From a virus: a DNA stretch of 33,650 nt. How positions within the stretch are numbered: the stretch's first letter is position 1; each line of letters starts with the position of its first letter. A model generated the notes under the pieces. That model saw nothing but the letters and a program-made list of their open reading frames with translations, searched no databases and was not told the origin of the DNA. The stretch spans positions 1 to 33,650 of the IMG/VR virus record IMGVR_UViG_3300037320_000111; one strand, 5' to 3'. Position numbers and translations under genes: made by a program. Positions 9,729 to 30,385 of the stretch are shown here, in pieces.

Positions 9729-9751
9729 TGAAGTGTGTTTTTTATGGTTTT

Positions 9752-9800: not shown

Positions 9801-9811
9801 GTATGATATGT

Positions 9812-9839
9812 AAAAAGGCTAAATCCCTTCAGCCTTTTT
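9812..9839 (-). terminator. Intrinsic terminator overlapping the gpT stop codon
   Basis: Perfect 9-bp stem aaaaaggct/agccttttt with a 10-nt loop, flanked by an A/T run. Confidence 0.6.
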
Positions 9840-10145: not shown

Positions 10146-10180
10146 TGCAATTTCTTCTAATTCATCCCAATCGGGTTGTT

Positions 10181-10552: not shown

Positions 10553-10971
10553 TATACCACTGCGCTAATTACATAATCCCCATTTCCGGTGAAAGATGCG
10601 TCTGCTGTTGCCACTCCATTTGTAGGTGCAGAAGCATTGATGGAGGCAATGAAAGCTTGTCCGGTGATCACAAAATCACCGGCAATGTCAGTGGTGAAAG
10701 ATACGGTCACTAATTCCCCCGCTTGATGCTTAGTCAACAATGCAACAAAATCATGTTGTGTTGATGCTGTTGCTTTGTCAGCTACTAACATATTTGTAGA
10801 CAATCCCCATTCGTAATTCCCTGGCGTTTGCAAGGTTCCGTTCGTGTCTTTTGATGCGATTCCTTCCAACTGCATTGTTGAATTGAATGAACATTCTGTG
10901 GCGTGAAACACTGTTTCTGCGCCAATTCTAATTCTTAAATTCTTCCCTTTGTAGGTGCTTCCTTGTGCCAT
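10552..10971 (-). CDS. Major tail protein (TP901-1/phi13-like)
   Basis: 139 aa. N-terminus MAQGSTYKGKNLRIRIGAETVFHATECSFN resembles the TP901-1 family major tail signature. Immediately precedes the chaperones. Confidence 0.8.
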   Translation of the reverse strand: MAQGSTYKGKNLRIRIGAETVFHATECSFNSTMQLEGIASKDTNGTLQTPGNYEWGLSTNMLVADKATASTQHDFVALLTKHQAGELVTVSFTTDIAGDFVITGQAFIASINASAPTNGVATADASFTGNGDYVISAVV

Positions 10972-10974
10972 TTT

Positions 10975-11316
10975 TTAGTATTTTTTAAAATTAATAATTC
11001 CCACAAAACTTTGATTATCTTCAATAAAATCGATTGTCGAAGATTCCCAATCGTATTCCGTTTCTATTATATTTTTGATTGCATCTGTCGCTTGCGCGCA
11101 TGCCTTGTATTTATTTGGATCAAACCACAACATCAAAGCAACTGTTGCTTCTTTACCATCTTTTGATGATGCATTTTGTTCATTTATTCGATAGGTTGCA
11201 AAAGGAAACGTTGTCGATTCTTTTGCGAAATAAGGCGAAATCCTTTGCCCCATCACCGAAGTGAATCCGGCTTGCGCCAATAAAAATGCGGTGATTTCTT
11301 CGCTTATTTCTAACAT
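10975..11316 (-). CDS. Tail completion / tail terminator-like protein (DUF3168-like)
   Basis: 113 aa. Called from its size and its position between the gp10-like protein and the major tail protein. The motif match is weak. Confidence 0.5.
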   Translation of the reverse strand: MLEISEEITAFLLAQAGFTSVMGQRISPYFAKESTTFPFATYRINEQNASSKDGKEATVALMLWFDPNKYKACAQATDAIKNIIETEYDWESSTIDFIEDNQSFVGIINFKKY

Positions 11317-11317
11317 T

Positions 11318-11830
11318 TTACTTCCCTATTTTATTAATTCTTCTTTGAATAAACTTCGCCATCTTTTTTTCTGAATCTGCTGTGACTGTGGATTGCGTTT
11401 GCAAATAAGCATTTTTAAGAAAAGGATTTGCTTTGGTTCGCTTCCTTGCCGCCGCCATATTTGCGCCTTTTTTACGTTTGCGCTTGAATCCTTTATTGTA
11501 AATATTTACACCCTCATGCACAAAATGTGCATACCATCCATTTTGACTTCCTTTTGCCCTTGCGCCCACATAAATTGTTGGCTCTGGTCCTTTTCCGGTA
11601 ATCAATCCCAACGCCTTTTTCAAGTTTCCAGGACTTATAATTTTACCCCTTGCAACGTGTTGTTTTTTAGATATTGGCGCGGTTATTCTTGCCGCATTCA
11701 ATGTTGGTTTCGCCACTTGTCTAAGGATCATCAGCATTTCACGTTTCTTGGTTTTGTCGTTTGCTTCAGCCATTATCAGCCGCTTCAATTCCTCAAAACC
11801 TTCTACTTGAACATTGATGCCATTACTCAT
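11318..11830 (-). CDS. HK97 gp10-family head-tail joining protein
   Basis: 170 aa. Conserved-looking core IYVGARAKGSQNGWYAHFVHEG. Position in the neck module. Confidence 0.7.
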   Translation of the reverse strand: MSNGINVQVEGFEELKRLIMAEANDKTKKREMLMILRQVAKPTLNAARITAPISKKQHVARGKIISPGNLKKALGLITGKGPEPTIYVGARAKGSQNGWYAHFVHEGVNIYNKGFKRKRKKGANMAAARKRTKANPFLKNAYLQTQSTVTADSEKKMAKFIQRRINKIGK

Positions 11831-12155
11831 TTTGATGTACCATTATTTCCAAAAACCGTTTCCTTCCTATTTCCTTAACATGATACACATCAAATCGATC
11901 CGCACCATCCAGGACCACCAATTGATTTGCTTTGACTTTAACCGCAGCATTGTATCTTATGGTGTAGGATCTATTTATTGAATGTCTTACTTTACCTTCT
12001 ACATCTTCACTACCAGACATCTCTTTTAAATGTGCAAATGGTTGTGCGATCATCGCATCACTCACTTCTTCTTCACCGGTAGAATTGCGGGTTTTTATTT
12101 CCTCAATTACCTGGATCATGCGGCACATTTGCCCGATGTATGGCATTTTTTCCAT
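11823..12155 (-). CDS. Head closure / head-tail adaptor (SPP1 gp16-like)
   Basis: 110 aa. C-terminal pattern YTIRYNAAVKVKANQLVVLDGADRFDVYHVKEIG is typical of this family. 8-nt overlap with the next gene. Confidence 0.7.
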   Translation of the reverse strand: MEKMPYIGQMCRMIQVIEEIKTRNSTGEEEVSDAMIAQPFAHLKEMSGSEDVEGKVRHSINRSYTIRYNAAVKVKANQLVVLDGADRFDVYHVKEIGRKRFLEIMVHQNE

Positions 12156-12156
12156 G

Positions 12157-12705
12157 TTAGTATTTTTTGTAAGGTCTTAACAATGCAGCCGAAGCCGTTG
12201 TGATTGTTTCTGTTCTATCCTCGCGGCGTTCGTACATATCAGCCAATTGCAGCAATATGGCTTGAACGACCGGTTTAGGTGTTGTTACATACCCCAATTT
12301 TATAGTCACGGTAACGGCATCAAAGTTTTTTTCAATAGCCGGTAATTCTTTTAAAAATCTCAGCACAAAATGTTTGTCGCTTTGCTGTGTCAGTTTATAA
12401 TCAGTTGAAGGCATCGTGATTTCTTCACCGCCATCCTCCGGGAAATAAGAAACACTATCCACACTTTGCAGCGGGAAGGCTTCGAATATTAAAGGATTAT
12501 CAAAACAATCCATTTCGATAATCATGTCCTTTGCCACAATAGCCGATCCGGTGAAATTCTCGCAATTAGCGATTGCAGTATCGATGTATGATTGTATCAA
12601 ATCATCTTCTTCAATGAAATCCGTTTCCAATCTTAGTTGCTTTTTAGCTTGCGCCAAAGTGACTATGATTGTTTCTGTGATCGTATAACTTACATTCGTT
12701 ACCAT
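12157..12705 (-). CDS. gp6-like head-tail connector protein
   Basis: 182 aa. N-terminal TLAQAKKQLRLETDFIEEDDLIQSYIDTAIANCENFTG matches the gp6-like connector signature. Confidence 0.7.
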   Translation of the reverse strand: MVTNVSYTITETIIVTLAQAKKQLRLETDFIEEDDLIQSYIDTAIANCENFTGSAIVAKDMIIEMDCFDNPLIFEAFPLQSVDSVSYFPEDGGEEITMPSTDYKLTQQSDKHFVLRFLKELPAIEKNFDAVTVTIKLGYVTTPKPVVQAILLQLADMYERREDRTETITTASAALLRPYKKY

Positions 12706-12709
12706 AGTG

Positions 12710-12898
12710 CTATTTTATAAATTCTGCGTATTTTGCTTCCACCAATTCATTGGCTTGGTTCGCGGGCAAATCGGCTTCTTCTTGCTCATTGTAAGCAAGG
12801 CCAAACTTCCCTGTAGGTGACAATAAAAATCTAATTTTTAAAGTCTTTGAAATAACACCCGCTTTGTCCGCGGGCGTTTCTTTATTTCCTTTACTCAT
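12710..12898 (-). CDS. Small hypothetical protein (62 aa) after the capsid gene
   Basis: ATG ORF tightly packed between the capsid and connector genes. Confidence 0.5.
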   Translation of the reverse strand: MSKGNKETPADKAGVISKTLKIRFLLSPTGKFGLAYNEQEEADLPANQANELVEAKYAEFIK

Positions 12899-12902
12899 CA
12901 GA

Positions 12903-14186
12903 TTAAACTGTGATTAATCCTTTTATTACTGAAAACGCTTTTGGTTCTTTTACCAAAACATCAGCAAAGACATTCACAGTCACTTCCACTAAACCTTCTT
13001 TTTTTCTTGAATACTCATCAACAGAAAGATCCATGAATCCCCATTGTCCGATCAATAATTGTGACCAGTCACCAAAAGCAACTGCCGAAAGGTTTGTTCC
13101 TGTTCCTTTTGTCAAGTTACCTGGCACATGGTTTGAAGTTTCCACCGCGTAACCATTCACTGTTCCATCCGTTCCCATGATATAATTCAAATCACCCGCA
13201 GCATGTTTGGATTTTTTCAATTTTCCTCTTGTTTTTGGATTCACGATGTAAGACATACGAGCCGCAGAAGCATTTTCAACAAATACATTTGTTTCTGAAT
13301 CCACGATCATATCCCAAGTAGGTGCATCACCATTCGCGCCTGTAGCCACAACTGATACTGAACCATTATTCAAGATCCCTAATGGTTGTCCTGTTCCAGA
13401 TCCATTGATCGCCGCTTTATCCATTGCATCAGCAATCGCCGCGTTGATTTGGTTAATTGTGTATAATTCCAAATCAAAAGAACTTTGAAGTAAATTTTGA
13501 AGTGAAATTGGCACAGTAACTGACAATCTTTTTGGGATCATGTCGATGTAACCATAAAGGTTTGCAGAAGCTGCAACAGTCGCTGTTTCACCTTCCCATG
13601 TTGCCACGATTCCACCTTGATTTTTAGGGAAACGAACATTTCCGCGAAGATCTCTCAAATAAGTTGCCCCTAATTTTTCAACTAATGGTGCCGGTCTAAG
13701 GAAATCAATTGGCGCTTGAAGATCAGTTGACACTAAGTTTCCACCCGCTGTTCCTGTATCTCCGGTTACTGTTTGTTTTCCGGCTCTGTTTTGCATTGGG
13801 ATAGCGATACCACCAATAGTCACGTTTGCATCTTTAGCATCTGCTAATGATCTTTCGTGTGTTTCTTTTTCGATTCCAGATAAAACACCGCCTTTTAATT
13901 GGGATGCAATCGCTCTGTGGATTGAAAACCTTTCTTTTGGCGCATCAACTACTTCAGCAACGATCACGTTGTTTGCAGCAGCAGCCGCACGCAATTCATT
14001 GGCTTCGAATTTTGCTGCTCTTTCGATTTGCGCTGTAATGTTTTCGATTTCAGAAGTTAACCCATCAAAAGAAGTGTTTTCTTCTGCTGTGAATTCTCTG
14101 TTTTCTGTTTTTGCCGCGTTGACAAAGTTTCTTTGTGCATCTAATTTCGCCGCACGATCCATTTTCAATTGATCTGAATTCTTCAT
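12903..14186 (-). CDS. Major capsid protein, HK97 family
   Basis: 427 aa. N-terminal coiled-coil delta-like region followed by an HK97-fold-sized body. Follows the prohead protease. Confidence 0.9.
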   Translation of the reverse strand: MKNSDQLKMDRAAKLDAQRNFVNAAKTENREFTAEENTSFDGLTSEIENITAQIERAAKFEANELRAAAAANNVIVAEVVDAPKERFSIHRAIASQLKGGVLSGIEKETHERSLADAKDANVTIGGIAIPMQNRAGKQTVTGDTGTAGGNLVSTDLQAPIDFLRPAPLVEKLGATYLRDLRGNVRFPKNQGGIVATWEGETATVAASANLYGYIDMIPKRLSVTVPISLQNLLQSSFDLELYTINQINAAIADAMDKAAINGSGTGQPLGILNNGSVSVVATGANGDAPTWDMIVDSETNVFVENASAARMSYIVNPKTRGKLKKSKHAAGDLNYIMGTDGTVNGYAVETSNHVPGNLTKGTGTNLSAVAFGDWSQLLIGQWGFMDLSVDEYSRKKEGLVEVTVNVFADVLVKEPKAFSVIKGLITV

Positions 14187-17224: not shown

Positions 17225-18973
17225 TTAAATATAAAAATCTTCTTCGGGCAGTTCTCGGCTGTACTTGTTTACTTCTTCTTTTGGCGAAAGCGAACCACCA
17301 AGAGCCATCACCAATGCCACGATCCCATCCACGCGCCCGCTTGATGCGCTGCTGTCTTTTTTGGATATTTTTGTGTTTTCGTTGTGGTCAATTTGCATCA
17401 CTACTTTCGACAACATCCACTCCATTAACGGACTTCCATCATGTTTGATTTTACCTTCATAGACTAATTTTTCGAAGGTTTTTGTTGGGTGACTAAAATT
17501 AGTAATTGACTGCGAAAACCAGGCCACATCATAACCTTCATCAATCAAATCATTAGTGATGCTGTTTGCGTTCCACCGGTCAAACTCGATGCGCTTAATG
17601 TTTAAATCTTGATAATTGCCTTTTATGTAGTCTTTGATCACATTGTAATCCACACAGTTTCCCGGTGTTGAAATCAAATGGCCGGCATCACGCCAATAGA
17701 CATACGGCACACGATCTTCGCGGCTGCGCTGTTGAATGGTATCTTCTGGACAGAACAAAAAAGGCTTGAAATAACGGATTCCCTCGTTGTCTGGTTCTGA
17801 CAATACCACAAAGGCGGTGATATCAGTATTTGTCGAAAGATCGACACCGGCATAAGATCCAAATTCTTTGAATTTATCCAGGTCCACGGTTAATCTTGGA
17901 AGCGATTTATCACGGCCATAATTAATATCGTTTTTCTTCCAAATATCAGAAGGAATCCAAGTGTTGGCCCCATCCACCCATTTATTCAATGACTTAGTTT
18001 TGAAGTTAGGAATCTTTGATGGTTGGTTGATCGCTTTGATGTACTCGCGCCGCATGAAATCCATTAATGTATTGTTATACTGTACATTGGGATTTGCTTT
18101 TTGCCAATTATTTTCATCTTCCCAATCATCTTCTTCATCCATCTGGTGGATCATAATCAAAGTATGATCATCGCGGTTCAATCCAGAAAGGATGTCCTTA
18201 TACGAATCTTCAGCCAATTTACAGGCTGATTTTAAGTTAAAACCCGCGGTAGTAATAATATAAACCAAAGGATTATCCCTTGCCCCCATCGCAGATTCTA
18301 ATACTTCGCGCACGCTGTCATCTTTATGGGCGTGATATTCATCTACCAGGGCCACGGAAGGATTTAACCCATCCAAGGTCTTAGAATCCCCACCAAGGAA
18401 ACGAAACACACCGGAAGTGTGTGAAAACCGGATTTCACGTTGTGTGTTCTTGAATCCCAAAGTGCGAAGAAGTATCGATTTATTAACAAATTCATAAGCC
18501 TGTTCCCAAAGCGTTTTTGCTTGTGCTTCTTTTGTTGCTCCCACATAAATTTCTGGTCCTTGCTCACCATCTAAACTTTGACAATACAATCCCAATCCCG
18601 CCAATTGTGTTGTTTTGCCGTTTTTACGCGCTACCGCTTCATATACGAAATTGATGCGGCGCAAACCGGTTTTGGCATTGATCCATGCGAAAATATTATA
18701 TAAAGTGAATTGTTGATACGGCGAAAGTTCGAAAGGCGTTTTAGATTTTGCCATTGGGCCTTTGGTGTGCGTTAAAAACTTTGGGAAGAAATCAATCACA
18801 AACATGCCTTCTCGGTGGTCTAGGATGTAGCCATCATCTTCGGCAGCGGCGATCCAATCAAAGAAACGTTGGGCCGCTAATTTCACCCATTTGCCAGTAA
18901 CTTCCTTGCCTGACAATACATCATTGGCGTATTGAAAAGGAACAGAAGCAAGCATTTGTGGTGTTGGTTTCAT
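17225..18973 (-). CDS. terL: Terminase large subunit (Terminase_1-like)
   Basis: Walker A ARKNGKTTQLAG and a C-terminal nuclease-sized domain. The track start at 18979 is a TTG; the first ATG is at 18973 (MKPTPQ..). Confidence 0.9.
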   Translation of the reverse strand: MKPTPQMLASVPFQYANDVLSGKEVTGKWVKLAAQRFFDWIAAAEDDGYILDHREGMFVIDFFPKFLTHTKGPMAKSKTPFELSPYQQFTLYNIFAWINAKTGLRRINFVYEAVARKNGKTTQLAGLGLYCQSLDGEQGPEIYVGATKEAQAKTLWEQAYEFVNKSILLRTLGFKNTQREIRFSHTSGVFRFLGGDSKTLDGLNPSVALVDEYHAHKDDSVREVLESAMGARDNPLVYIITTAGFNLKSACKLAEDSYKDILSGLNRDDHTLIMIHQMDEEDDWEDENNWQKANPNVQYNNTLMDFMRREYIKAINQPSKIPNFKTKSLNKWVDGANTWIPSDIWKKNDINYGRDKSLPRLTVDLDKFKEFGSYAGVDLSTNTDITAFVVLSEPDNEGIRYFKPFLFCPEDTIQQRSREDRVPYVYWRDAGHLISTPGNCVDYNVIKDYIKGNYQDLNIKRIEFDRWNANSITNDLIDEGYDVAWFSQSITNFSHPTKTFEKLVYEGKIKHDGSPLMEWMLSKVVMQIDHNENTKISKKDSSASSGRVDGIVALVMALGGSLSPKEEVNKYSRELPEEDFYI

Positions 18974-19014
18974 AATCAAAACCGATGTACACCGGTGTTT
19001 TTTGAGTTATGATT

Positions 19015-19063
19015 GCAAAACTAAGTGGGTGTTTTGTTTTGATTGGTTAAAGATTTTAACTTT
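19015..19063 (-). promoter_or_regulatory. Late promoter-like module, copy 3 (with canonical TAGTTTTG -7 box)
   Basis: Minus strand reads AAAGTTAAAATCTTTAACC AATCAAAACAAAACACCCACT TAGTTTTGC, upstream of the terL ATG. Confidence 0.65.
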
Positions 19064-19069
19064 AAAAGG

Positions 19070-19092
19070 AAACCCGCTGTGGTAGCGGGTTT
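19070..19092 (-). terminator. Intrinsic terminator after the recombinase gene
   Basis: Perfect 9-bp stem aaacccgct/agcgggttt with a 5-nt loop, flanked by T/A runs. Confidence 0.7.
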
Positions 19093-19096
19093 TTAA

Positions 19097-19930
19097 TTAT
19101 ATTCTTATCGCGTTAAGTGGTGAGTTTATTTTGCTGATGATATTGTTTGAAATCTGAACATAGCACATTGTCGTTTTTACATTGCTGTGGCCCGCTAACT
19201 TCTGGACCACATTAATATCACAACCGGCTTCGACTAAGTGGGTGAAGCTATTGTGCCGCATCTGATGTGTCCAAACTCGTTTGTTTATTCCGGCTTTCTT
19301 CCCTAATTGTTTGATCACCGCGCCCACACTTGTAGCTGTGTATTGATCACAATTTTGACCGCTTAAAATAAAAATCTTGGTTTGATACTCGTGATAATAC
19401 TTTTCTAATAAAGGAACCAAAGAAGCGGCCAACATCACTTGCCGGTCTTTGTTCCCTTTGCCTTTTAAGATGTTGATGATCATCCTGGAACGATCAATAT
19501 TTTCCCATTTTAAATTCAGCAATTCAGACACCCGCAAACCGCACGAATAAAGCAACGCCAATATCACTTTGTGTTTTAGATTTTCGCAAACATCGAACAT
19601 CTTTTGCACTTCGGCTTGGGATAGGACAATAGGCAGCTTTTTGTCGGATCGCGGATATTCAATATTTTTAAATTTTAACGGCTGTTTCCCGGTGAATTTA
19701 TAAAACAGTTTTACGGCAGAAATTCGATGTTTGCGGCCATTTATACTGTTTGCCAACAACAACCATTGTTTTATTTTTTGCTCTGAAATTTCCGAAGGTT
19801 TTGTGGCGATATTATTAAAATACTCTAAAAAACATTTTACCTGGCTGCAATAGTTTAAGATCGTGTTTTCGGCGTAGTTTTTCAACCTCAAATCTTCAGA
19901 ATACATTTCAACATACTTTGTGATATTCAT
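19097..19930 (-). CDS. XerC/XerD-type tyrosine recombinase (second recombinase of the phage)
   Basis: 277 aa. SAM-like N-domain. Catalytic signature GLRVSEL (R), HQMRHNSFTH (H-x-x-R), GHSNVKTT (H) and CYVQI (Y). Confidence 0.85.
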   Translation of the reverse strand: MNITKYVEMYSEDLRLKNYAENTILNYCSQVKCFLEYFNNIATKPSEISEQKIKQWLLLANSINGRKHRISAVKLFYKFTGKQPLKFKNIEYPRSDKKLPIVLSQAEVQKMFDVCENLKHKVILALLYSCGLRVSELLNLKWENIDRSRMIINILKGKGNKDRQVMLAASLVPLLEKYYHEYQTKIFILSGQNCDQYTATSVGAVIKQLGKKAGINKRVWTHQMRHNSFTHLVEAGCDINVVQKLAGHSNVKTTMCYVQISNNIISKINSPLNAIRI

Positions 19931-19945
19931 GGCGTTAAATTTTAA

Positions 19946-19991
19946 AAAGTTATTTCGGAATGAAGATAAGCAACATTTCCGAAATAACTTT
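19946..19991 (-). terminator. Strong hairpin (15-bp perfect stem, 16-nt loop) 15 nt upstream of the recombinase ATG
   Basis: aaagttatttcggaa (19946..19960) pairs with ttccgaaataacttt (19977..19991), with a T-rich tail on the minus strand. Could be a terminator of the 151-aa gene or a regulatory/recombinase-related structure. Confidence 0.5.
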
Positions 19992-20042
19992 AGTTAAGTA
20001 TTGATTTTATTAGGTATTAATAGAAGTAAATACATATAGTAG

Positions 20043-20498
20043 TTAGCAAACAGTTTCAGAAACCCTTGTCGCTTCGATTATATATTCTTCCAAAAGTGAT
20101 TGAGTTTTTGAAATATGGTATCTATCATTCCATTTAAAGCAATCAACTGTTTTTTCTTCTCCTTGAAATTGACATCTTACTTTATATTGATTTTCCTTGT
20201 CAAAACGGGCGTTAAATAATAAACAATCTTCATTTCTATTTTCAAGTCCGTGTTCCATTCCGTAACATCTATTTACCCAATCAAACAATTTTTTACGTTC
20301 ATTTTCTGTCAAAGCATGATAATGTTTATTTATAACATCGTCCCAAAACATAGCTCTTGCAATTGGGCGTGGAGGAATACACGCTTCGACTAAAAAACTG
20401 AACTCAAAAAAATCAATATTAAACCGATTTGCTAACATCGGTTTTGACTTATTGCCGTTTTGGTTTTGAACGGAATTATTATTTTGTTCTTCAATCAT
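20043..20498 (-). CDS. Hypothetical protein (151 aa), orphan
   Basis: ATG ORF. Asn/Gln-rich N-terminal tail, then a core FSFLVEACIPPRPIARAMFWDDVINKHYHALTENERKKLFDWV. No family recognised. Confidence 0.6.
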   Translation of the reverse strand: MIEEQNNNSVQNQNGNKSKPMLANRFNIDFFEFSFLVEACIPPRPIARAMFWDDVINKHYHALTENERKKLFDWVNRCYGMEHGLENRNEDCLLFNARFDKENQYKVRCQFQGEEKTVDCFKWNDRYHISKTQSLLEEYIIEATRVSETVC

Positions 20499-20558
20499 TT
20501 GTCATTAATTTAAAGTTGGTCTTGTGTTTTATCGGCAACAAGACAAAGCCGAATACCG

Positions 20559-21074
20559 TTACAAGACATCATTTAACAGATTCAAAGCAAAAACTTCAAA
20601 TACGTTCCCAACTCTATTTTTTGGGAAAAGTTGGTTAACAAAGTTTTCATTTTCTTTTTTGTATACTTCAAACATTCTTGACCGTTCTTTTTTTGAATGT
20701 TTTATATTAGCAATTCTATCACACAATTTTACAAAAGTTGCATATTCTACTTCTCTAATTCCATCGTAATACTTATCATTCGCTCTTTCTTTTCTATTCT
20801 TACCTTTTTCATTGGATAAAGCAAAAACAATTTCTGCAACTTTTGTATTTGATACTTCTTTCACATCATTGTAAGTTAGCCTACAATCTTCTATTGTATC
20901 GTGAAGCCAACAAGCTGACAAAACTATTTCTCTATCTTTTTCGGGAATTGTATTGATAAATTTATTCGCCACATCAACTACCATTTTTAAATGAAATGAG
21001 TAAGAATAAACGCCATATTTATGATTGACGTTATTGTGTGACCTAATTGCAAACTCTTTAATAAGTTCTAACAT
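20559..21074 (-). CDS. HD-domain hydrolase of the Mesh1/SpoT (p)ppGpp-hydrolase type (small alarmone hydrolase-like)
   Basis: Aligns by eye to the Mesh1/SpoT hydrolase blocks: FAIRSHNNVNHKYGVYSYSFHL (A..H....[RK]..PY..H), CWLHDTIEDC (LLHDxxED), VAEIVFALSNEK and FVKLCDRIANI (KxADxLxN). The track start at 21230 is a TTG with 52 extra residues; the first ATG is at 21074 (MLELIKEF). Confidence 0.7.
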   Translation of the reverse strand: MLELIKEFAIRSHNNVNHKYGVYSYSFHLKMVVDVANKFINTIPEKDREIVLSACWLHDTIEDCRLTYNDVKEVSNTKVAEIVFALSNEKGKNRKERANDKYYDGIREVEYATFVKLCDRIANIKHSKKERSRMFEVYKKENENFVNQLFPKNRVGNVFEVFALNLLNDVL

Positions 21075-21226
21075 AATGTTTAGTATAATAACCGTCTTGT
21101 AACACTCGTTTTGTGCTATTACGGATTTGTTGGTTAATTCATGTTTATTTTGCCCGTAGGCGTTTATTTTTAGTTGAAAATTCTCGGTTCGCAAGTCCGT
21201 AACAGACACAAAGCGAGGGGACGTTG

Positions 21227-22021
21227 TCAAAAAGGCAATTCATTCAAACTTTTCACCCTTTTATACCCCACATTATAGCGTTGATTGTGCGAAGCATCAA
21301 ATAAATACGTACAAATACCGGCATTGTTTAATTCAACAAAGTTTTCAAAGCGATCATCCACATAAATATCAATACCAGATGCTTTCGCCACTTCCACTTT
21401 GCTTTCACCAAGGCCAATGCTGTACACCGGCACAGCCGGAAATCCATTGTTGTGCAACCATTCTTCGGTCCAGGATGCCGGAATGCTGCGGCTTGTGATG
21501 TAGCAATGCGGTTCGAAAGGAATTTCGCTTGGTTTTATCTTTGCCGGGATCGACAACCAAAAATCTTTGTCATCCTTCAAAAGTTCAAACTTTGCGTTGA
21601 TGTAGCGGTCGAAGTTCCATGCATCCGGCACATCTTGTTGGTGGTGCGCGGTCCAATGCTGCACCCACCCGGCCAACACTTCATCAATGTCCAATCCTAT
21701 TTTCGGGCGTTTTAAATATTTATGTGTGCGGTTATCACCTTGCGGGTAAATTTTATAATATTCTGTTAGGAATCCCGCGTTGCACATTACGTGCGCCGTA
21801 TGCAGCAATCCCGTTTCCTGGTCGTAATCTTCACCGGCTTCAAAAGCGGCGATGTGTCTTTTCATCGATGCCAATACGGTGGTCCACTTCATGCCCTTTT
21901 CCCAATTGCGTTCCGCATATTTGTTGGCTCCTAATGTCAACACCTTTGCATATTGATCTTGTGCAAATTGCGGGACCAGATCATGGCGCGTTTTTCCGTC
22001 GTTGTATCTTAATCCTTCCAT
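21227..22021 (-). CDS. Fusion: DUF5664/MazZ-like dNTP diphosphohydrolase N-domain + HAD-type 5'(3')-deoxyribonucleotidase (NT5C-like)
   Basis: N-terminal region RYNDGKTRHDLVP..LTLGANKYAERNWEKG..MKRHIAAFEAGEDYDQETGLLHTAHVMCNAGFL resembles the dATP/dGTP diphosphohydrolase N-terminal family as I recall it. The C-terminal half has HAD motifs: DIDEV (DxDxV), ITSRS, a Lys in ESKVEVAK, and YVDDRFEN. The ATG lies 1 nt after the terS stop. Confidence 0.6.
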   Translation of the reverse strand: MEGLRYNDGKTRHDLVPQFAQDQYAKVLTLGANKYAERNWEKGMKWTTVLASMKRHIAAFEAGEDYDQETGLLHTAHVMCNAGFLTEYYKIYPQGDNRTHKYLKRPKIGLDIDEVLAGWVQHWTAHHQQDVPDAWNFDRYINAKFELLKDDKDFWLSIPAKIKPSEIPFEPHCYITSRSIPASWTEEWLHNNGFPAVPVYSIGLGESKVEVAKASGIDIYVDDRFENFVELNNAGICTYLFDASHNQRYNVGYKRVKSLNELPF

Positions 22022-22022
22022 G

Positions 22023-22463
22023 TTAACCGTTTTTAGATTTCATTAATTCTTCAAACAAAGATGTTTGTGCGGGATCTGTTGTGGATTTCAATTCTTTGTC
22101 AGACTTAGGATCTAATCCAAATATTTTAAATTGTTTCATCAGAATATCAATGGCATCGTTTCTCAATGTTACTACAACCGAAATATTTTGCGCGCCGGTT
22201 TTAAATGTCTGGATGTACCCGGTTCCAAATTCCTTTGCATTTTTCTTTTCTATTTCGCGGCAAGCGAATTCAAATTGCGACATTCCCACCGCGTACACTT
22301 CCAACGCATTCAAGTAGTGATCTTGCAATCGGTCCTTCTTCGCCAGAATGTTTCCCATGAACATGTAATGCTTTTTAGATTCTTTAGATAAATACATTGG
22401 CGGCCGCGGACATTTTACTAAACCTTCTTTATCTTTCCCAATTGATACAATTTTCAAACCCAT
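22023..22463 (-). CDS. terS: Terminase small subunit (P27 family-like)
   Basis: 146 aa. Pattern LSKESKKHY..LQDHYLNALEVYAVGMSQFEFACREIEK..GYIQTFKTGAQNISV..IFGLDP. Downstream of the HNH gene. Confidence 0.75.
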   Translation of the reverse strand: MGLKIVSIGKDKEGLVKCPRPPMYLSKESKKHYMFMGNILAKKDRLQDHYLNALEVYAVGMSQFEFACREIEKKNAKEFGTGYIQTFKTGAQNISVVVTLRNDAIDILMKQFKIFGLDPKSDKELKSTTDPAQTSLFEELMKSKNG

Positions 22464-22576: not shown

Positions 22577-22900
22577 TTATTCCTTTGGTGATTTTACCCC
22601 ATACCCCCTTGATTCATGTGAGGACTTGACATTGTGGCATCGTTCGCATAGGCTCTGGAAGTTGTCATGGTCCAACGGTGCGCCGCCCGCCTTGATTGGT
22701 ACGATGTGATCCACTACTTTGGCAGCAGTCACGATGCCCGCATTTTCACAATGAACACACAACGGATGCTTCAATCGATAGGCTTTGCGCGCCTTTCTCC
22801 ATGGCCATGAATTATAAAAGGCATCTTGTTTTTCTTCCCTTCCGAATGCGACCTTCTCCGGCACCCACGATCGGTTCACTTTGTTTGGTTTGTTTGCCAT
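22577..22900 (-). CDS. HNH endonuclease (packaging-associated)
   Basis: 107 aa. CVHCE..VDHIVP..N.QSLCERCHNVKS is an HNH/zinc-finger signature. Classic position before terS in HK97-like cos phages. Confidence 0.85.
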   Translation of the reverse strand: MANKPNKVNRSWVPEKVAFGREEKQDAFYNSWPWRKARKAYRLKHPLCVHCENAGIVTAAKVVDHIVPIKAGGAPLDHDNFQSLCERCHNVKSSHESRGYGVKSPKE

Positions 22901-22902
22901 AA

Positions 22903-24387
22903 TTAAAAAGCTATATCATTATCATTTTCGAATGCTTCAACAGGCGTGATCAAACGCAATGGCGGTTCGCTGTAGGTTGTATCATCGCTCATGTCATCAG
23001 CATCTTCGACATCCACAAACTTTGTTTTATCACCCACCCATTTTAAGTATACCGTGCCGGTTGATCCACCGCGATACTTTGCCAACACTATTTCAGTATT
23101 CGCCCCCAGATCCAATAGGTTTTGCAACGTGTAATCATTATCATCGTTATCCATTGGCAAGTTGTAGTATTCCGGTCTATAGATGAACTCTACAATGTCG
23201 GCATCTTGTTCAATCGATCCACAGTCTTTAATATCAGACAGATGCGGGCATTTGTTGTTTCCGTTTCGTTTCTCGCACTCTCTATTAACTTGAGCCAACA
23301 CAATCACCGGAATGTCCAATTCCTTTGCTAACTTCTTCAATCTTCTTGATATGGATGACAATTCATTTTCTCGACTTCCTTTCATCGTTCTATCACCCAT
23401 TAATTGTATGTAATCTATAATCAACAACTTAATGTCAAATTTGCGCTTCCATAGCTTTGCAGTGATAATCACATCGGTGATGTCAGCATTACCGCTATCA
23501 TCGATATACAAAGGATAATCCTTCATTCTGTTCGTGTGTGCTGATAACGTTGTGAAGTATTCCGGCTTTTCAAAGCCACTTTTAATCAATTGTTTTAGAT
23601 GAAAGTTAGTATCAATCGACACCGCGCGCGCCGTTAATTGATGCATCGACATTTCAAGCGATATAAACCCAACACCTTGCATTTGTTTGGCGTTAGCTAT
23701 AGCAGTCTTTAAAACCTTAGATGTCTTACCCATTCCGGGCCGTGCTGCCACAATAACCAGATCTTGATTCCTATATCCACCCGTGTATTTATTTAACCGC
23801 TGAAAGCCTGTATCAACACCAACCATTTTCACTTCATCTTTGTTAGCGGTCAAAAGTTCCACAGATCGTTTCAATTCTTCCAAGGCTGTAGGAAATGACA
23901 TTGTGGTTCTTCCCGTTTGCGTATAATCGATCACGTTGTCGATTTCTTTCTGCCAACGTGCTATCACCTCAAAGATGTCGTTTTCGTCGCTCTGCGCTAA
24001 TCCTATGACCTGTGACGAGAAGTTTATAATCATTCGTGCGATGAATTTTTGCAGAATAATCCTTGCATGGTATTCTGAATGCGCTGAAGATGCTATTTTT
24101 TGTGTTAAATCAATTAAAGCCATATCACCACCGGATTGATCATACAAAGACAATTTGCGTAGTTCAGCCGATACGGTCAACATGTCAATTGGATCACCCG
24201 CAGCATACAAAGATTGAATTGCCTTGAATATGCATTTGTTTGATTCTTTATAAAAAGTGTCCGGACTTCTTACAATCGCCATCACACCATCCAAGCCTTT
24301 GCTGTCAATCAACATCGCCCCCAACACCGCTTCTTCCATTTGAACGCTATGCGGCATCACGTTTTGTTTATTTATAGTATTTTGCAT
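22903..24387 (-). CDS. dnaB: Replicative DNA helicase DnaB
   Basis: 494 aa. N-terminal PHSVQMEEAVLGAMLID, Walker A ARPGMGKTS, and C-terminal RecA-like motifs (IIDYIQLM, LAQVNR). Confidence 0.9.
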   Translation of the reverse strand: MQNTINKQNVMPHSVQMEEAVLGAMLIDSKGLDGVMAIVRSPDTFYKESNKCIFKAIQSLYAAGDPIDMLTVSAELRKLSLYDQSGGDMALIDLTQKIASSAHSEYHARIILQKFIARMIINFSSQVIGLAQSDENDIFEVIARWQKEIDNVIDYTQTGRTTMSFPTALEELKRSVELLTANKDEVKMVGVDTGFQRLNKYTGGYRNQDLVIVAARPGMGKTSKVLKTAIANAKQMQGVGFISLEMSMHQLTARAVSIDTNFHLKQLIKSGFEKPEYFTTLSAHTNRMKDYPLYIDDSGNADITDVIITAKLWKRKFDIKLLIIDYIQLMGDRTMKGSRENELSSISRRLKKLAKELDIPVIVLAQVNRECEKRNGNNKCPHLSDIKDCGSIEQDADIVEFIYRPEYYNLPMDNDDNDYTLQNLLDLGANTEIVLAKYRGGSTGTVYLKWVGDKTKFVDVEDADDMSDDTTYSEPPLRLITPVEAFENDNDIAF

Positions 24388-25098: not shown

Positions 25099-25591
25099 CC
25101 GAACGCATTTTAACCATCTTTACATTGCACCCAACCATTTGCGCTTTACAAATAGAATTCGACACCGCCACCATTGCTTTTGCTTTTTCCAATTGCATGT
25201 CTGTTGGCCCTTTTGCCAATTCATTAAACAACCCCATTAAGCTATTCGACACTTTGTCCATCATTTCTTCTGGTTCCATTACAGTGGCTTCATGCGATGC
25301 TTCTCTTACTGCCATTTGGCTTTGTTTTTCAGCCAATACCGTTTTTTGAACATAAGTCGACACTGTCGCTTCCTTTTCTTGCTTGCGTCGCTCTATTTCT
25401 GCAAATTCTTCTTTGGTGATCACTTCTATACTTTCCAAAAAAGAATCTAATTGAGAAGGCAAAAAAGCGAACGTGCGTTGTTTTGTGGTTATCACTGCTT
25501 TTTGATTAATAATCTTAACTTTTAATACATCATATCTAATGTTTCCAAATTTGAATGATGTTCCGATTAATGCGTTTAATTTACTTTGCAT
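25085..25591 (-). CDS. Hypothetical protein (168 aa)
   Basis: ATG ORF overlapping both neighbours (14 nt and 11 nt). Central Glu/Lys-rich helix. No family recognised. Confidence 0.6.
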   Translation of the reverse strand: MQSKLNALIGTSFKFGNIRYDVLKVKIINQKAVITTKQRTFAFLPSQLDSFLESIEVITKEEFAEIERRKQEKEATVSTYVQKTVLAEKQSQMAVREASHEATVMEPEEMMDKVSNSLMGLFNELAKGPTDMQLEKAKAMVAVSNSICKAQMVGCNVKMVKMRSDGLL

Positions 25592-26294
25592 GGTGTTTTT
25601 GTATTTGTTGGTTCAATTTTAAATTTGTTCTTTTCAATTCTATTATTTTAGGGAAATCACTTTTCACTTTTTCGACCATTTCCGGATCTTTTACCTTTAA
25701 AAACTTTTTGACAATCGCATTATCACACAATCGGTTTCTTTGCATATTTTCAGACTTGGTGATCAATTCAAGGTTATCCAATGCATAATTCATTTTATCA
25801 CCATCCTTCATCACCAGAATCATTTTTTTTGGTATTGGTCCAAAAGCGTTTTCAAACAAAATCCGATGCTTAAATTCAAAGTTGATGCTATTCACTAATC
25901 CTTTTTCATGCCTTACTTTTACTTCTACATAACCATCTTTCGAAATCCGTTCCGTTCCTATCGGCACTGTATTATGTGGATCTTGACCGGCTTTGAATCG
26001 GTTTTGCTTGGCTCTTTCATATGCTTCCGGCGTTAAATAATCCTTTTGTTTCAATCCTTTATTCCATCCAGGATGAAACTTTTGCAAGCGCGTTTCCATC
26101 CCTTGTATTCCATTCAGCCTTCCGGAGAAAGCACTATTAAAAAAATCATCACTTTTTTTCAATCCTAAAGAATGCGATTTCCACTTCAAAGATGGAAGCG
26201 TTCGCCCCATTAAAACCGCCAAATCCCTGTTGATCATGCTTGGATATTTTTCTCTTAAAAAAGCCAATTCTTGTGGTGTCCAATTGTTCTTCAT
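25581..26294 (-). CDS. HNH_3-like protein with N-terminal HTH-like domain (catalytic His apparently replaced)
   Basis: KHRILFENAFGPIPKKMILVMKDGDKMNYALDNLELITKSEN matches the HNH_3 pattern, but Met occupies the position of the H in V-x-H-x-D-G. The likely start is the ATG at 26294 (MKNNWTPQELAF); the track start at 26336 runs into the tRNA-like element. Confidence 0.6.
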   Translation of the reverse strand: MKNNWTPQELAFLREKYPSMINRDLAVLMGRTLPSLKWKSHSLGLKKSDDFFNSAFSGRLNGIQGMETRLQKFHPGWNKGLKQKDYLTPEAYERAKQNRFKAGQDPHNTVPIGTERISKDGYVEVKVRHEKGLVNSINFEFKHRILFENAFGPIPKKMILVMKDGDKMNYALDNLELITKSENMQRNRLCDNAIVKKFLKVKDPEMVEKVKSDFPKIIELKRTNLKLNQQIQKHHAK

Positions 26295-26312
26295 AATAAT
26301 TTCATTTTTTTC

Positions 26313-26381
26313 GTGCGGGATATGGATTCGAACCATTTAAACCCGATTGAAAGCACGAAATACCAAATCTTCCTTTCAACC
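26313..26381 (-). other. tRNA-like 3' fragment (T arm + acceptor 3' strand) preceded by a 9-bp-stem hairpin
   Basis: Minus strand reads GGTTGAAAG..CTTTCAATC (hairpin 26345..26381), then GGGTTTA AATGG TTCGAAT CCATA TCCCGCA C. The T loop is a perfect TTCGAAT. No complementary 5' acceptor strand was found, so this is not an intact tRNA. Confidence 0.3.
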
Positions 26382-27591: not shown

Positions 27592-27709
27592 TATCCTTTT
27601 GGGTTACAATTAACACCACCAAAAAAGAATTTTGAAACTGCATCATAAATTGTATTAAATATTTTCATTTGATTGGGATTTATTAGTTGTATAAATAGTT
27701 TTGTTTTAA

Positions 27710-27991
27710 TTATTCGCATTTCAATTTTTCAGACACATCCAAAAGCGCATCAGCAATGTCATTATCGAAGATTCGAAAATGCCAAAATTGCCACAAACGC
27801 GCTTCACTAATTGTTGGGTAATAATTTAAAACAATGGCTTTGACCGCATCAAAATTCATAAATCCACGCTGCATAAAAAGCAGTAAAACACCAGATGATT
27901 TATGGACCGTTTCAAATCGGTTTTTGTTTTGCACCTCTCTTGGTTTCAGTTTTTGTTTAGACTTCATGTTGTATGTTGTATTTATTTGCAT
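27710..27991 (-). CDS. First gene of the leftward early operon (93 aa), hypothetical (Cro/antirepressor position)
   Basis: ATG ORF divergent from the repressor-like gene. A TAGGTTTG -7 box lies on the minus strand at 28016..28023. Confidence 0.5.
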   Translation of the reverse strand: MQINTTYNMKSKQKLKPREVQNKNRFETVHKSSGVLLLFMQRGFMNFDAVKAIVLNYYPTISEARLWQFWHFRIFDNDIADALLDVSEKLKCE

Positions 27992-28267
27992 AATTAAAGT
28001 GTTGTATTTTTTTTACAAACCTACAAAATTTAATTTGTTATTACCAAACTATTTAGGTAATAATTTCAAATTATACATAACAAATTACATAATTTATTTA
28101 TAAAGTCCTTTAAACACAACAAGTTACAATGAATAAAAAATGGTTAATATTTTATTATTATATAATTTTTAATTATATTTGATATGTAATTATGTGTATA
28201 AATACATAATTAATTTAGTTTTTTACCAAAATTAATACCACATAAAATTTTAAAAAAAACGAAAATC
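27992..28267. promoter_or_regulatory. Divergent genetic-switch region (276 bp, very A/T-rich) with candidate promoters and operators
   Basis: Leftward -7 box TAGGTTTG (28016..28023, minus). Rightward TAGTTTTT (28216..28223, plus). Inverted repeat TTATTACC-N10-GGTAATAA (28038..28063). Palindrome TGTAT-AA-ATACA (28194..28205). ACATAATT motif three times (about 28087, 28184 inverted, 28204). Confidence 0.5.
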
Positions 28268-28642
28268 ATGTATAACCTAAGCAAAAAAGAAAAAATGGCT
28301 GTGATAATGGATTTGTTTGAAAAAACAGGCATTACGGCTTATGAATCAGCACAAAACACCACGTTAAGCGAAGTAGGAATTCAAAAAATATTAAAAAAAG
28401 AAGTGAAATCACCGCACGAATCAACGTTAAATGAACTATTATTATTTTTCGAAAAAAGACAAAAAGACAGCCGTATTGATGAAGTATTTGCCACGATCGC
28501 ACCCAAAACAAAAGCCATTAGCGATGAAAGCAAAAGTGAATTGTACGAAAAAATCATTAGATTAATGGAAGCAAACAACCTATTGTTGGCGCAAAATTTA
28601 CGTTTCAAACTATTAATGGACAGAAACAAAGTGAAGTATTAA
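28268..28642 (+). CDS. Repressor-like HTH protein (CI position), no peptidase domain
   Basis: 124 aa. One of only two plus-strand genes, divergent from the early operon. HTH-like ITAYESAQNTTLSEVGIQKILKKEV. The function call is positional. Confidence 0.5.
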   Translation: MYNLSKKEKMAVIMDLFEKTGITAYESAQNTTLSEVGIQKILKKEVKSPHESTLNELLLFFEKRQKDSRIDEVFATIAPKTKAISDESKSELYEKIIRLMEANNLLLAQNLRFKLLMDRNKVKY

Positions 28643-28660: not shown

Positions 28661-29173
28661 ATGAAGAAGTTAATTATAATTTTGGCGTTGATCAGTTTTC
28701 AAAGCCACGCACAAACCCCAGAAGGAATCCCGGATGCTTTTCGATTAGCAAACAAAAATATAATTTGGGAAGTAGTTTTCGAATTAAAAGAAGGAGAAAC
28801 AATCGAAGGTCTAAAAAACAACCTTAAATTAAAATTTAATGATGAAGGATTTGGCACCGCCGAAGAATTACAATTGGACTGTAAAGGCGTTAATATGTGG
28901 CTCAAAGGGAATTTTAAAACGAATTATAAAATAGAAACCAAAGACAATCGCTACCGCGTCACGGCATCAAATTTCATTTTTGAAGATACAATGGAAATCA
29001 ATTTTGGATCAGTAAGGACCGCCGCAAAAACCACACCTTTGGAATTTTATGAACTCAAAGACAGCAACGGAACCATCCGGCCAAACAATCAAACCCAACG
29101 CGACATGCAATGCCTGGATCATCAATTGCGCCAATTATTCACCATCATTCCCGCCCCCAATCAAAATTGGTAA
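28661..29173 (+). CDS. Secreted protein co-transcribed with the repressor (DUF4468-like); moron / superinfection-exclusion candidate
   Basis: 170 aa. Signal peptide MKKLIIILALISFQSHAQ. 18 nt after the repressor-like gene. The 3' end overlaps the int 3' end convergently by 39 nt. Confidence 0.6.
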   Translation: MKKLIIILALISFQSHAQTPEGIPDAFRLANKNIIWEVVFELKEGETIEGLKNNLKLKFNDEGFGTAEELQLDCKGVNMWLKGNFKTNYKIETKDNRYRVTASNFIFEDTMEINFGSVRTAAKTTPLEFYELKDSNGTIRPNNQTQRDMQCLDHQLRQLFTIIPAPNQNW

Positions 29174-30385
29174 TCCCGCAATAATATCAAACAAAGCCTT
29201 ATCACGGATCACTTCGGGATATTTATCTTTATAGTAATTATCCACATCATCGCGTTCATGCCCCATCAATTCCCGAATCACATCCGTTTCAATCATTAGA
29301 TTTTTAGCAATGTTAGCAAAAGTATGGCGCGCCACTTTTGCGCCAATATTCCCACCATCAGGCCGCAATTCCATTTCGATTTTTTCTTGTACATAAATCA
29401 ACCCACGTTGAAAAGTACGCCTAAATGTTTCATACGCCGCCTTTTCTTTGGCCCAACCAAACAACCATTCACCATCACATTTGTACTTATCGATCAACAC
29501 TTGCGCTTTTAGGTGTATTTTCAAATCAATTCGGTTTCCGGTGTTGGTCTTGGTTCGTTCAAAAATCACCCTTCCACGGCGCAATTGTGCATTCTTTAAA
29601 TAATACAAATCAATCAAATCGCAACCGCCAAAATAGAATTGCAACAAAAACAAGTCAACATATTTTTGCTTTTGGGATTTCAAATCCAGTTTTTCCAAAA
29701 TTTCAATTTGCTTTTTGTCTAAATACTTTTTCTTATTGTCGAAAGATCGTTGTTTTAAATTAGCAAAAACACCTTCAAATGGCTTCGAATTAAACAATTT
29801 GTGATGCAACACCCCTTTGTTGTAAATAGAACGCACCGTGCGAAGATATAGATGCACAGTCGATTTGCTGTTGCCAATTCCCAATTGATAATTCCGGAAC
29901 GCCATCAAATTTTTATACTCTAAACCATCCAAAGCCACATTTCGCACGAAATTTTCAAATTGCTTGTTCACGTTCTCATAAACCCGCAGATTTCCCAAGA
30001 CTTTATTTTGTGATTTCAAGTCCTTGTTTTTTCCATAACCATTAGCTAATGTTTTCATTTCGGAAATCAATTGCGCAGCATAATCATTAAACAACACCGC
30101 GCCGGCTTCTTCTTTGAATAGTTCTACAAAGGCTTTTTCGACATCCACAACGCCTTGCAAAATCATTTTTTTAGCCTTAATTTTCAAATCCATTATAATA
30201 GGCAGCAGCAAATCAAAATCCGGATGATCCGGATCAATCAATTTTCTTTTTTTATCCCAATGATCCAGGTGACAATGACAAATTGTCTTTTGTTTTCTTT
30301 TATTTTGGTGTGCCACTTCTAAAACTACCATAAATCCTTCGGCGGTTTCTTTTTTAGTTTTCAGAATTTTGAAGTCTATTTTCAT
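29135..30385 (-). CDS. int: Tyrosine integrase, Bacteroidota type with N-terminal arm-binding domain
   Basis: 416 aa. Catalytic ARHTFANIA (H-x-x-R), LMGHERDD (H) and NYYKDKY (Y). Adjacent to attP. Confidence 0.9.
   Translation of the reverse strand: MKIDFKILKTKKETAEGFMVVLEVAHQNKRKQKTICHCHLDHWDKKRKLIDPDHPDFDLLLPIIMDLKIKAKKMILQGVVDVEKAFVELFKEEAGAVLFNDYAAQLISEMKTLANGYGKNKDLKSQNKVLGNLRVYENVNKQFENFVRNVALDGLEYKNLMAFRNYQLGIGNSKSTVHLYLRTVRSIYNKGVLHHKLFNSKPFEGVFANLKQRSFDNKKKYLDKKQIEILEKLDLKSQKQKYVDLFLLQFYFGGCDLIDLYYLKNAQLRRGRVIFERTKTNTGNRIDLKIHLKAQVLIDKYKCDGEWLFGWAKEKAAYETFRRTFQRGLIYVQEKIEMELRPDGGNIGAKVARHTFANIAKNLMIETDVIRELMGHERDDVDNYYKDKYPEVIRDKALFDIIAGLPILIGGGNDGE

Follow-up and report, generated by a model that had tools for sequence, protein, structure and literature searches.

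In lambdoid and HK97-like phages, accessory genes that carry their own promoter and terminator are found between conserved genes, as so-called morons or plasticity regions. In T4-type phages, the hyperplastic regions hold promoter-early stem-loop (PeSL) cassettes, described by Arbiol et al. 2010 (PMC2839356) and Comeau et al. 2014 (PMC4122927), in which a promoter and a stem-loop form a conserved motif; non-essential open reading frames (ORFs) are shuffled by recombination at these motifs. Here we describe a locus that shares features with both, on the IMG/VR virus record IMGVR_UViG_3300037320_000111 (positions 1 to 33,650; hereafter the window, 33,650 nt). About 3 kb separate the genes for the small and large terminase subunits, terS and terL, and this interval holds four genes and two copies of a structured repeat element of ~140 nt. 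Two of the genes have described counterparts as well. Small alarmone hydrolases are known from phages (PbcSpo/PaSpo subfamilies; Salmonella phages PVP-SE1 and SSU5) and neutralise every toxSAS toxin against which they were tested (PMC7229694), and the dATP/dGTP diphosphohydrolase MazZ forms, with the HD-domain enzyme DatZ and with PurZ, the triad of Z-genome phages (PMC8342488). We consider it likely that the interval is one instance of a hypervariable accessory-gene slot of a lineage of temperate HK97-like Flavobacterium siphoviruses, located at a transcription-unit boundary, in which the repeats act both as expression signals and as homology for exchange.

Relatives of the window were found through a protein database and contig look-ups, single-protein TerL scans of viral and genome contigs having returned no close relative. 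There are many TerL relatives at 70–80% identity, on contigs of 30–37 kb, and genomic context was recovered for seven independent relatives, in each of which terS and terL stand apart. The close relatives with the slot have TerL proteins 77–80% identical to that of the window, and to these is added L017, from a more distant clade. The gap between terS and terL is 3043 nt in the window, 4227 nt in L003, 4179 nt in L005, 2382 nt in L007, 2018 nt in L009, 1215 nt in L010 and 5211 nt in L017, the slot ranging from 1.2 to 5.2 kb in close relatives and holding different cargo each time. Many small ORFs occur in the relatives' slots, together with genes for DNA methyltransferases of the N6/N4 and C5 types, a PAPS reductase-like protein and an RNase T-like exonuclease. 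Aligned with each relative in turn, the window loses nucleotide homology at 22022–22032, at the terS stop codon, and regains it at 18973–18979, at the start of terL; these boundaries are unchanged in L005 and L010, which have the slot and lack the recombinase gene found in the window. In ~45 more distant TerL relatives (33–56% identical), terS abuts terL, with a gap of −11 to 215 nt. Since the two genes abut in the distant relatives and stand apart throughout the clade, the split packaging module is, as judged from gene order, a derived trait common to the clade.

A first-pass annotation of the window had held that terS and terL are normally contiguous and that mosaic, non-packaging genes had come between them, and the distant relatives bear this out: the region is accessory, of mosaic composition, and divides a packaging module that is otherwise intact. 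The same annotation took the interval for a one-off island. The alignment with relatives that it proposed, which mapped both the terS/terL adjacency and the island boundaries, revealed in its place a variable slot at that position in every close relative examined, whose breakpoints fall on the stop codon of terS and the start of terL. As the outcome that would speak against an island it had named the same four genes at this position, with uniform composition, in all relatives; the window's cargo set is carried by no relative examined. A separate observation concerns the terL side of the slot, where L003, L004, L009 and L010 have a reverse-strand gene of 72–92 aa of the HTH_3/HTH_26 (Cro/CI-like) type between the slot and terL; the window has no such gene.

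The transcription signals place the slot between units rather than within one. All ORFs from the HNH gene through terL lie on the minus strand. The 19-mer GGTTAAAGATTTTAACTTT, itself a GTTAAA/TTTAAC palindrome, occurs exactly three times in the genome (9782–9800, 16061–16079 and 19045–19063; 0.02 expected). The copies stand upstream of an 818-aa tail gene, the portal gene and terL, each with a terminator hairpin before it and a TAnnTTT(G/A) box ~25 nt after it. A late activator may bind the 19-mer, and the late genes appear, from these signals, to be cut into at least three terminator–promoter units. In the late promoter module ahead of terL (19016–19063, minus strand), the 19-mer is accompanied by a −7-like box, TAGTTTTG, at 19016–19023. 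The cargo array is closed by a predicted intrinsic terminator at 19070–19092 on the minus strand (−13.3 kcal/mol, z = −4.7) with a T-run behind it. The late unit opens with terL itself, which bounds the slot on the right (17225–18973, minus strand; TerL_ATPase, E = 1.8e-31; TerL_nuclease, E = 3.3e-43); an alternative TTG start at 18979 is open, and the homologues, at 582 aa, fit a start at 18973. The left boundary is terS (22023–22463, minus strand; Pfam Terminase_4, E = 2.4e-07, and phrog_83), the last conserved gene of a unit that has DnaB (22903–24387, minus strand) at its upstream end and continues through HNH (22577–22900, minus strand; HNH profile, E = 1.4e-09). Because terS is last in the DnaB–HNH–terS unit, a terminator follows the recombinase gene and terL restarts from a late module, the slot is an operon boundary, and the cargo is thereby placed, by its predicted signals, between the replication–HNH–terS unit and the late unit, outside any essential operon. 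The restart of terL from its own copy of the late promoter had been recognized before, as had the terminator; the location of the cargo inside an essential operon, also claimed, does not agree with either.

When a 6-kb region of the window was compared with GenBank phages at the nucleotide level, only short matches were found, of ~130 nt at 20430–20561, to the 5′ ends of Muminvirus DNA methyltransferase genes, and these matches led to the discovery of the repeat element. The copy concerned, copy A (20428–20567, minus strand; core TAAC...GTTA at 20433–20561), covers 60 nt of intergenic DNA together with codons 1–22 of a gene for a 151-aa protein. It is 80% identical to L007:1137–1265, at the start of an unrelated gene, and 74–76% identical to Muminvirus DNA at methyltransferase gene starts. 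An exact 17-mer from this stretch is present in 64 IMG/VR contigs, of which ~56 are genuine; its matches in bacterial genomes are mostly due to chance, and only Flavobacterium metagenome-assembled genome contigs looked genuine. The proteins that follow the 17-mer are diverse, and translation of the conserved 3′ arm uses one frame in some genes and a second frame in others, which shows that conservation acts at the nucleotide level.

We built a covariance model, R1, from 43 copies, leaving out on purpose the 152-nt gap at 21075–21226 that the first-pass annotation had pointed out ahead of the HD-domain hydrolase gene. The model finds in this gap a full-length element, copy B (21095–21232, minus strand; core CAAC...GTTA at 21100–21226), which heads the HD gene and scores 64.1 bits (E = 5e-12), with 21 of the 22 pairs formed and with compensatory changes. 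Copy A scores 136 bits, and the window genome holds these two copies only; minimum-energy folding gives the long stem in each (z = −3.4 for A and −3.6 for B). The element is ~140 nt long, with invariant TAAC...GTTA ends and a covarying stem of 22 bp around a loop of ~75 nt. There are 42 copies in the relatives and 212 across 68 sources, in arrays whose copies are co-oriented in 61 of 62 loci at a median spacing of 686 nt. The slot arrays of L003, L004 and L007 have three copies each, that of L017 five and those of L005 and L009 one, and the element is also present in L013, L014, L101 and others. In the relatives' arrays one element stands ahead of each small gene, the first copy often beginning at the terS stop.

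In 150 aligned copies, 95.8% of cells are paired; shuffles give 73%, and sliding the partner columns gives no more than 57%. These percentages are somewhat inflated because the alignment was fitted to the structure of the model. Double-sided changes number 574 where 116 are expected, and compensatory change is seen in 19 of the 22 pairs. Beyond TAAC/GTTA no pairing above that of shuffles was found (46.6% versus 44.3%), and an extension of the stem there, as an R box, was ruled out on these figures. G-U pairs outnumber A-C combinations by 230 to 20, an excess that indicates selection on the sense strand, so that the stem is probably an RNA structure on that strand. The loop holds the box TAAATTTA, which resembles the Bacteroidota −7 element. 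In 105 of 149 copies an ORF also starts in the loop and continues across the 3′ arm. The possibility that the preceding gene ends on the TAA of TAAC was considered and rejected, as this is so in only 30 of 141 copies. No Rfam family matches the region or the element-rich loci. On this evidence, the element is a previously undescribed motif of predicted structure, widespread in Flavobacterium phages, at the 5′ end of accessory genes.

The virulent Muminvirus snusmum6-1 (L013), whose genome is complete and whose terS and terL adjoin each other, carries a nine-copy array in its leftward early region and lacks a tyrosine recombinase, demonstrating that the element is independent of the recombinase; in L015, too, an array is present and the recombinase is absent from the locus. 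Between snusmum6-1 and filifjonk9-1 (L014), blocks that are 99% identical have changed their order, with both block ends inside elements, and several of the reordered blocks carry DNA methyltransferase genes. Several Muminvirus methyltransferase genes are headed by the element, and the methyltransferase gene content of Muminvirus varies and tracks plating efficiency (PMC7077304). We propose that the elements would be self-contained portable expression signals, with a −7 box and usually a start codon in the loop, and that, by analogy with PeSL, the conserved repeats would serve as portable homology for cassette exchange by recombination. The stem could act in termination, processing or translational control of read-through RNA.

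The PeSL cassettes are the closest known analogue. In both systems, short conserved repeated motifs join a promoter-like sequence to a stem-loop and are found between small non-essential ORFs in variable regions, in the case of the element as 212 copies in arrays; breakpoints between related phages fall inside the motifs, as in snusmum6-1 and filifjonk9-1; and the arrangement accounts for insertions, deletions and replacements of accessory genes. There is, however, no sequence relationship between the two, and host phylum and promoter type differ. The element is also the larger, at ~140 nt, and has invariant outer TAAC/GTTA ends. Whereas a PeSL places its promoter beside a compact terminator hairpin, the element encloses its promoter-like box within the loop of a long-range stem of 22 bp, a loop that usually takes in the beginning of the gene as well, from the start codon to about codon 22. 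The promoter of the element is a putative one, by the resemblance of TAAATTTA to the consensus.

The slot likewise resembles the moron regions in that its genes are non-essential, deviate in composition, lie between two conserved genes with their own expression signals and a terminator, and vary among relatives. It differs from them in splitting terS from terL, which is unusual for HK97-like phages, and in being an array with a dedicated repeated element.

Several observations weigh against the interpretation of the interval as a slot served by portable repeats, in addition to the inflated pairing percentages. The loop promoter is a consensus resemblance only, and the −33 TTG lies ~21–23 nt upstream of the −7-like box, the usual spacing being 19–21. 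If transcription starts in the loop, the stem is possible only in read-through transcripts, and its role is then unexplained. When the HD gene of the window is compared with its homologue in L245, all pairs of elements are 61–70% identical, compared with 78% for the gene; neither element, upstream or downstream, shows clear co-inheritance with the gene, which leaves the unit of exchange undefined. A homologue of the recombinase is co-oriented just downstream of the element array in all ten loci that hold one, which chance synteny alone does not explain, and two of the domain assignments made for the cargo below, HD_4 and NT5C, fall short of their Pfam thresholds.

The four genes themselves differ in composition and in occurrence. 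The contrast in G+C content that had been noted from spot counts stands, with 27%, 30% and 23% in the 60-nt lines at 20101, 20401 and 20701, respectively, and 57% at 21601, in a genome of 37.8% G+C. At third codon positions the G+C fraction is 0.215 in the HD gene, 0.23 in the 151-aa gene, 0.48 in the gene at the terS end and 0.45 in the recombinase gene. The cargo genes are, by this measure, distinct from one another, and each is found elsewhere without the others. Their coordinates, with those of terL, terS and HNH, are as given in the first-pass annotation, and its gene identifications, a MazZ-like/HAD nucleotidase fusion, a Mesh1/SpoT-type hydrolase and a XerC/D-type recombinase, agree with profile matches and with matches to the sequences of solved structures. 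Of the profile searches that it had proposed, those for dGTP_diPhyd_N and Phage_integrase exceeded their cut-offs and those for HD_4 and NT5C did not.

Cargo gene 1 (21227–22021, minus strand; 44.8% G+C), whose ATG overlaps the terS stop and which has no repeat element ahead of it, encodes a 264-aa protein. The N-terminal domain (residues 3–98) matches PF18909, dGTP_diPhyd_N, the domain of the MazZ family, at E = 2.3e-30 and 104.9 bits, well above the cut-off of 27 that is curated for MazZ-type deoxynucleoside triphosphate (dNTP) diphosphohydrolases. The C-terminal part matches NT5C at E = 6.7e-05 and 23.3 bits, below the cut-off of 24.8 and over only the C-terminal part of the profile, and motifs I and IV of an NT5C-type 5′-deoxynucleotidase of the haloacid dehalogenase (HAD) class are readable in it as GLDIDEV (DIDEV, of the DxDxV type) and YVDDRF (DD). 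A phmmer search of PDB sequences with the protein gave no match; phrog_37590 matches it over its full length (E = 2e-86). The protein is thus a predicted fusion of a MazZ-like dNTP diphosphohydrolase with an NT5C/HAD 5′-deoxynucleotidase, which, from homology, would turn dNTP into deoxynucleoside monophosphate and then into deoxynucleoside. Unlike the described MazZ and NT5C enzymes, it joins both domains in one polypeptide, and the PurZ and DatZ partners are absent. Similar fusions, all uncharacterised, are encoded by Cellulophaga phages (Calle_1, phi38:1 and phi40:1) and a Leptolyngbya phage at 54–56% identity over the full length, and by Salinibacter phages at 32–34%. Across 80 other viral loci in IMG/VR, the fusion never adjoins the HD gene, terS, the 151-aa family or the repeat element; in the relative with TerL P0007, it is present elsewhere on the contig.

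Cargo gene 2 (20559–21074, minus strand) encodes a 171-aa HD protein whose best sequence matches among solved structures are the small alarmone hydrolases 6yvc/6z3n (E = 3.5e-06) and Mesh1 (3nqw, E = 1.2e-04). It matches phrog_990 at E = 4.4e-29, and its match to HD_4 (PF13328; E = 1.7e-04, 21.8 bits) does not reach the gathering threshold of 27.2. The catalytic signature, which aligns with that of 6yvc/6z3n, is complete: RxH (AIRSH), H (FHL), HDxxED (WLHDTIEDC) and DRxxN (CDRIAN). The protein is therefore a predicted small alarmone hydrolase of the SpoT/Mesh1 type, and by homology it would hydrolyse alarmones of the (p)ppGpp or (pp)pApp type, which could keep host metabolism going or blunt a toxSAS-type defence. 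As with the phage small alarmone hydrolases already described, it is phage-encoded and single-domain, of ~170 aa, with a complete HDxxED signature; it differs from them in its distance (phmmer, 3.5e-06 to the Pseudomonas aeruginosa enzyme) and in lying under the Pfam HD_4 cut-off. A homologue 82% identical is found in L245, within a different element array and with the fusion absent, and in no other genome sampled are the HD gene and the fusion linked.

Cargo gene 3 (20043–20498, minus strand) belongs to a widespread but uncharacterised phage protein family. Described at first as an orphan, the 151-aa protein has 421 homologues with the almost invariant core RFNIDFFEFSFLVEACIPPRPIARAMFW, and a member of the family occurs in a phage with a different terminase type. 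It has no match in Pfam, PHROG, NCBIfam or PADLOC, PADLOC giving no match for any protein of the island. The structure prediction that had been suggested for it did not reveal a known fold: the AlphaFold2 model has a mean predicted local distance difference test score (pLDDT) of 78.9, and no match at E ≤ 0.001 was found in the PDB and BFVD libraries.

The fourth gene (19097–19930, minus strand) encodes a 277-aa Xer-like tyrosine recombinase (Phage_integrase, E = 5.4e-37) in which the catalytic residues R, K, HxxR, H and Y are readable. Its NCBIfam scores are all below the respective cut-offs (XerD, 166.7 against 329.6 bits; XerC, 165.7 against 335; XerA, 197.7 against 220), and the integron-integrase model TIGR02249 is matched in two stretches at 166.9 bits against a cut-off of 265. 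The XerA and integron-integrase models are among its best NCBIfam matches, and the additional domain specific to IntI is lacking. The protein is a predicted member of the Xer/IntI superfamily, with thousands of homologues at 70–90% identity. Orthologues lie directly upstream of terL in L004, L007 and L009 (63–65% identical), L003 (40%) and L017 (79%), beside unrelated cargo in each case, and the recombinase is, from this gene context, a recurrent resident of the terL-proximal end of the slot across the lineage. In L017 (5291–7834) and in L137, from another clade, the slot ends in a pair of tyrosine recombinase genes, for proteins of 326 and 277 aa, that flank a 225-aa ORF.

An alignment of nine loci defines the 5′ leader of the recombinase gene (TAACTACTATATGTAT...TAACGCC; 19931–20045, minus strand), which is kept across the relatives. 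The duplex leader sequence is TAACTACCATATGTAT, and no second site with its conserved motif was found elsewhere in the genome above chance. The window alone has a 59-nt insertion in this leader, apparently bordered by a duplicated TTAAC and missing from the loci of eight relatives. Within it is the hairpin at 19946–19991 (minus strand), a perfect stem of 15 bp (−17.4 kcal/mol, z = −7.7) that had already been singled out in the first-pass annotation and, like the 152-nt gap and the terminator, is real. Taken as a candidate for a repeated mobile element, the hairpin was discarded, no second copy being present in IMG/VR. The recombinase itself is probably a secondary integrase or a resolvase that acts on a simple site of the Xer type. 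In a Flavobacterium contig of 172 kb, L019, three copies of the element form an array in a prophage-like region (7700–13200) and are followed by a homologue of the recombinase, ~2 kb from a prophage-like boundary that adjoins a cluster of three tRNA genes (tRNA-Arg/Pro/Ser), a context that is compatible with integration and hints that the family can act as an integrase.

Against this background, the proposal that the four genes are one mobile cassette for counter-defence or host takeover, moved into the packaging operon by its own tyrosine recombinase, is very unlikely. As a block the region is absent from the relatives, its composition differs, the recombinase stands at one end and an alarmone hydrolase is able to neutralise toxSAS toxins (PMC7229694). 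However, the recombinase orthologues keep their position beside unrelated cargo in five phages (L003, L004, L007, L009 and L017), the three cargo genes are nowhere else found together, the four-gene block in the window has neither inverted nor direct repeats at its flanks, the boundaries of the slot are the same in the recombinase-free L005 and L010, and G+C content differs among the four genes. The comparative context largely refutes this proposal. The first-pass annotation had treated the four genes as a unit of a kind not described before. Their combination is indeed undescribed, but it looks fortuitous, and its parts are not new: counter-defence by phage alarmone hydrolases is already in the literature (PMC7229694), and cultured Cellulophaga, Salinibacter and Leptolyngbya phages encode the fusion. 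The four-gene island is ordinary phage mosaicism, and the existence of a lineage-wide slot removes the case for a new four-gene system. A related idea, that the fusion and the HD hydrolase, the latter as a DatZ-like dNTPase, purge a canonical nucleotide for a phage DNA with a modified base as in Z-genome phages, is extremely improbable. It draws on the MazZ family domain of the fusion, on the MazZ–DatZ–PurZ triad (PMC8342488) and on the methyltransferase and PAPS reductase-like genes, as DNA-modification genes, in the slots of relatives. Yet the ORFs of the complete 33.4-kb genome include no PurZ-like (adenylosuccinate-synthetase-like) gene and no DNA polymerase gene, and the absence of PurZ excludes a Z-genome pathway; the HD protein, with its HDxxED signature, matches SpoT/Mesh1-type alarmone hydrolases and not DatZ, and the fusion and HD gene are unlinked in all other genomes sampled.

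We also weighed whether the TAAC...GTTA hairpins are a new class of folded-strand recombination site, akin to attC, that the Xer-like recombinase uses to capture and reorder cassettes, with a borrowed host Xer enzyme or homologous exchange taking its place in recombinase-free phages. The attC sites of integrons are imperfect hairpins of ~60–140 nt, conserved at AAC...GTT only and covarying in their stems, with one site per cassette in co-oriented arrays and an Xer-related tyrosine recombinase adjoining the array. The element, at ~130 nt, has an invariant outer AAC/GTT, covarying inner stems and a variable loop, its arrays are co-oriented with one copy per small gene, the recombinase, when present, is co-oriented just downstream in 10 of 10 loci, and XerA and integron-integrase models rank among its best matches. 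The element, however, has no pairing outside TAAC/GTTA, and hence no RYYYAAC/GTTRRRY box; the 277-aa recombinase lacks the IntI-specific insertion and matches the integron-integrase model in two stretches, below its cut-off. Moreover, the complete Muminvirus genome has its nine copies and the L015 locus its array without a recombinase, the excess of G-U over A-C points to the sense strand and to RNA, and the element, unlike attC, includes expression signals of the downstream gene, namely a promoter-like sequence and the start codon. We regard the integron-like interpretation as quite unlikely, and it is the 10 of 10 downstream recombinases that keep it alive at this low probability; were it true, Flavobacterium phages would carry an integron-like cassette system. 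The position of the recombinase behind the arrays is probably due to shared synteny, and the evidence as a whole is better accommodated by the hypervariable slot at an operon boundary, with repeats that would supply expression signals and homology.

In the window, nt 1–255 are identical to 33396–33650, from which it follows that the contig is a complete genome, either closed into a circle or redundant at its termini, with a length of 33,395 bp. It encodes a separate integrase of 416 aa at 29135–30385, so that the recombinase of the slot is, as had been claimed, a second one. Two HNH-type endonuclease genes are present, an HNH_3 gene in the replication module (251 aa, 25581–26336) and the packaging-associated gene that adjoins terS. 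The lowest G+C content of the genome (22.6–29% in 500-nt windows) is at 27600–28300, between divergently oriented small ORFs near the integrase/regulatory region, which may be an origin or a regulatory switch region.

In conclusion, what the locus adds is the repeat element, which is widespread, absent from Rfam and unusually strong in its covariation, and at which rearrangements begin and end. It heads accessory genes that include DNA methyltransferases known to affect host range. If the interpretation given here is true, the PeSL principle would extend from T4-type phages to small Bacteroidota siphoviruses, model R1 would provide a simple sequence handle for accessory and counter-defence cargo in Flavobacterium phages, and the element would offer a compact portable expression element for Flavobacterium genetics.

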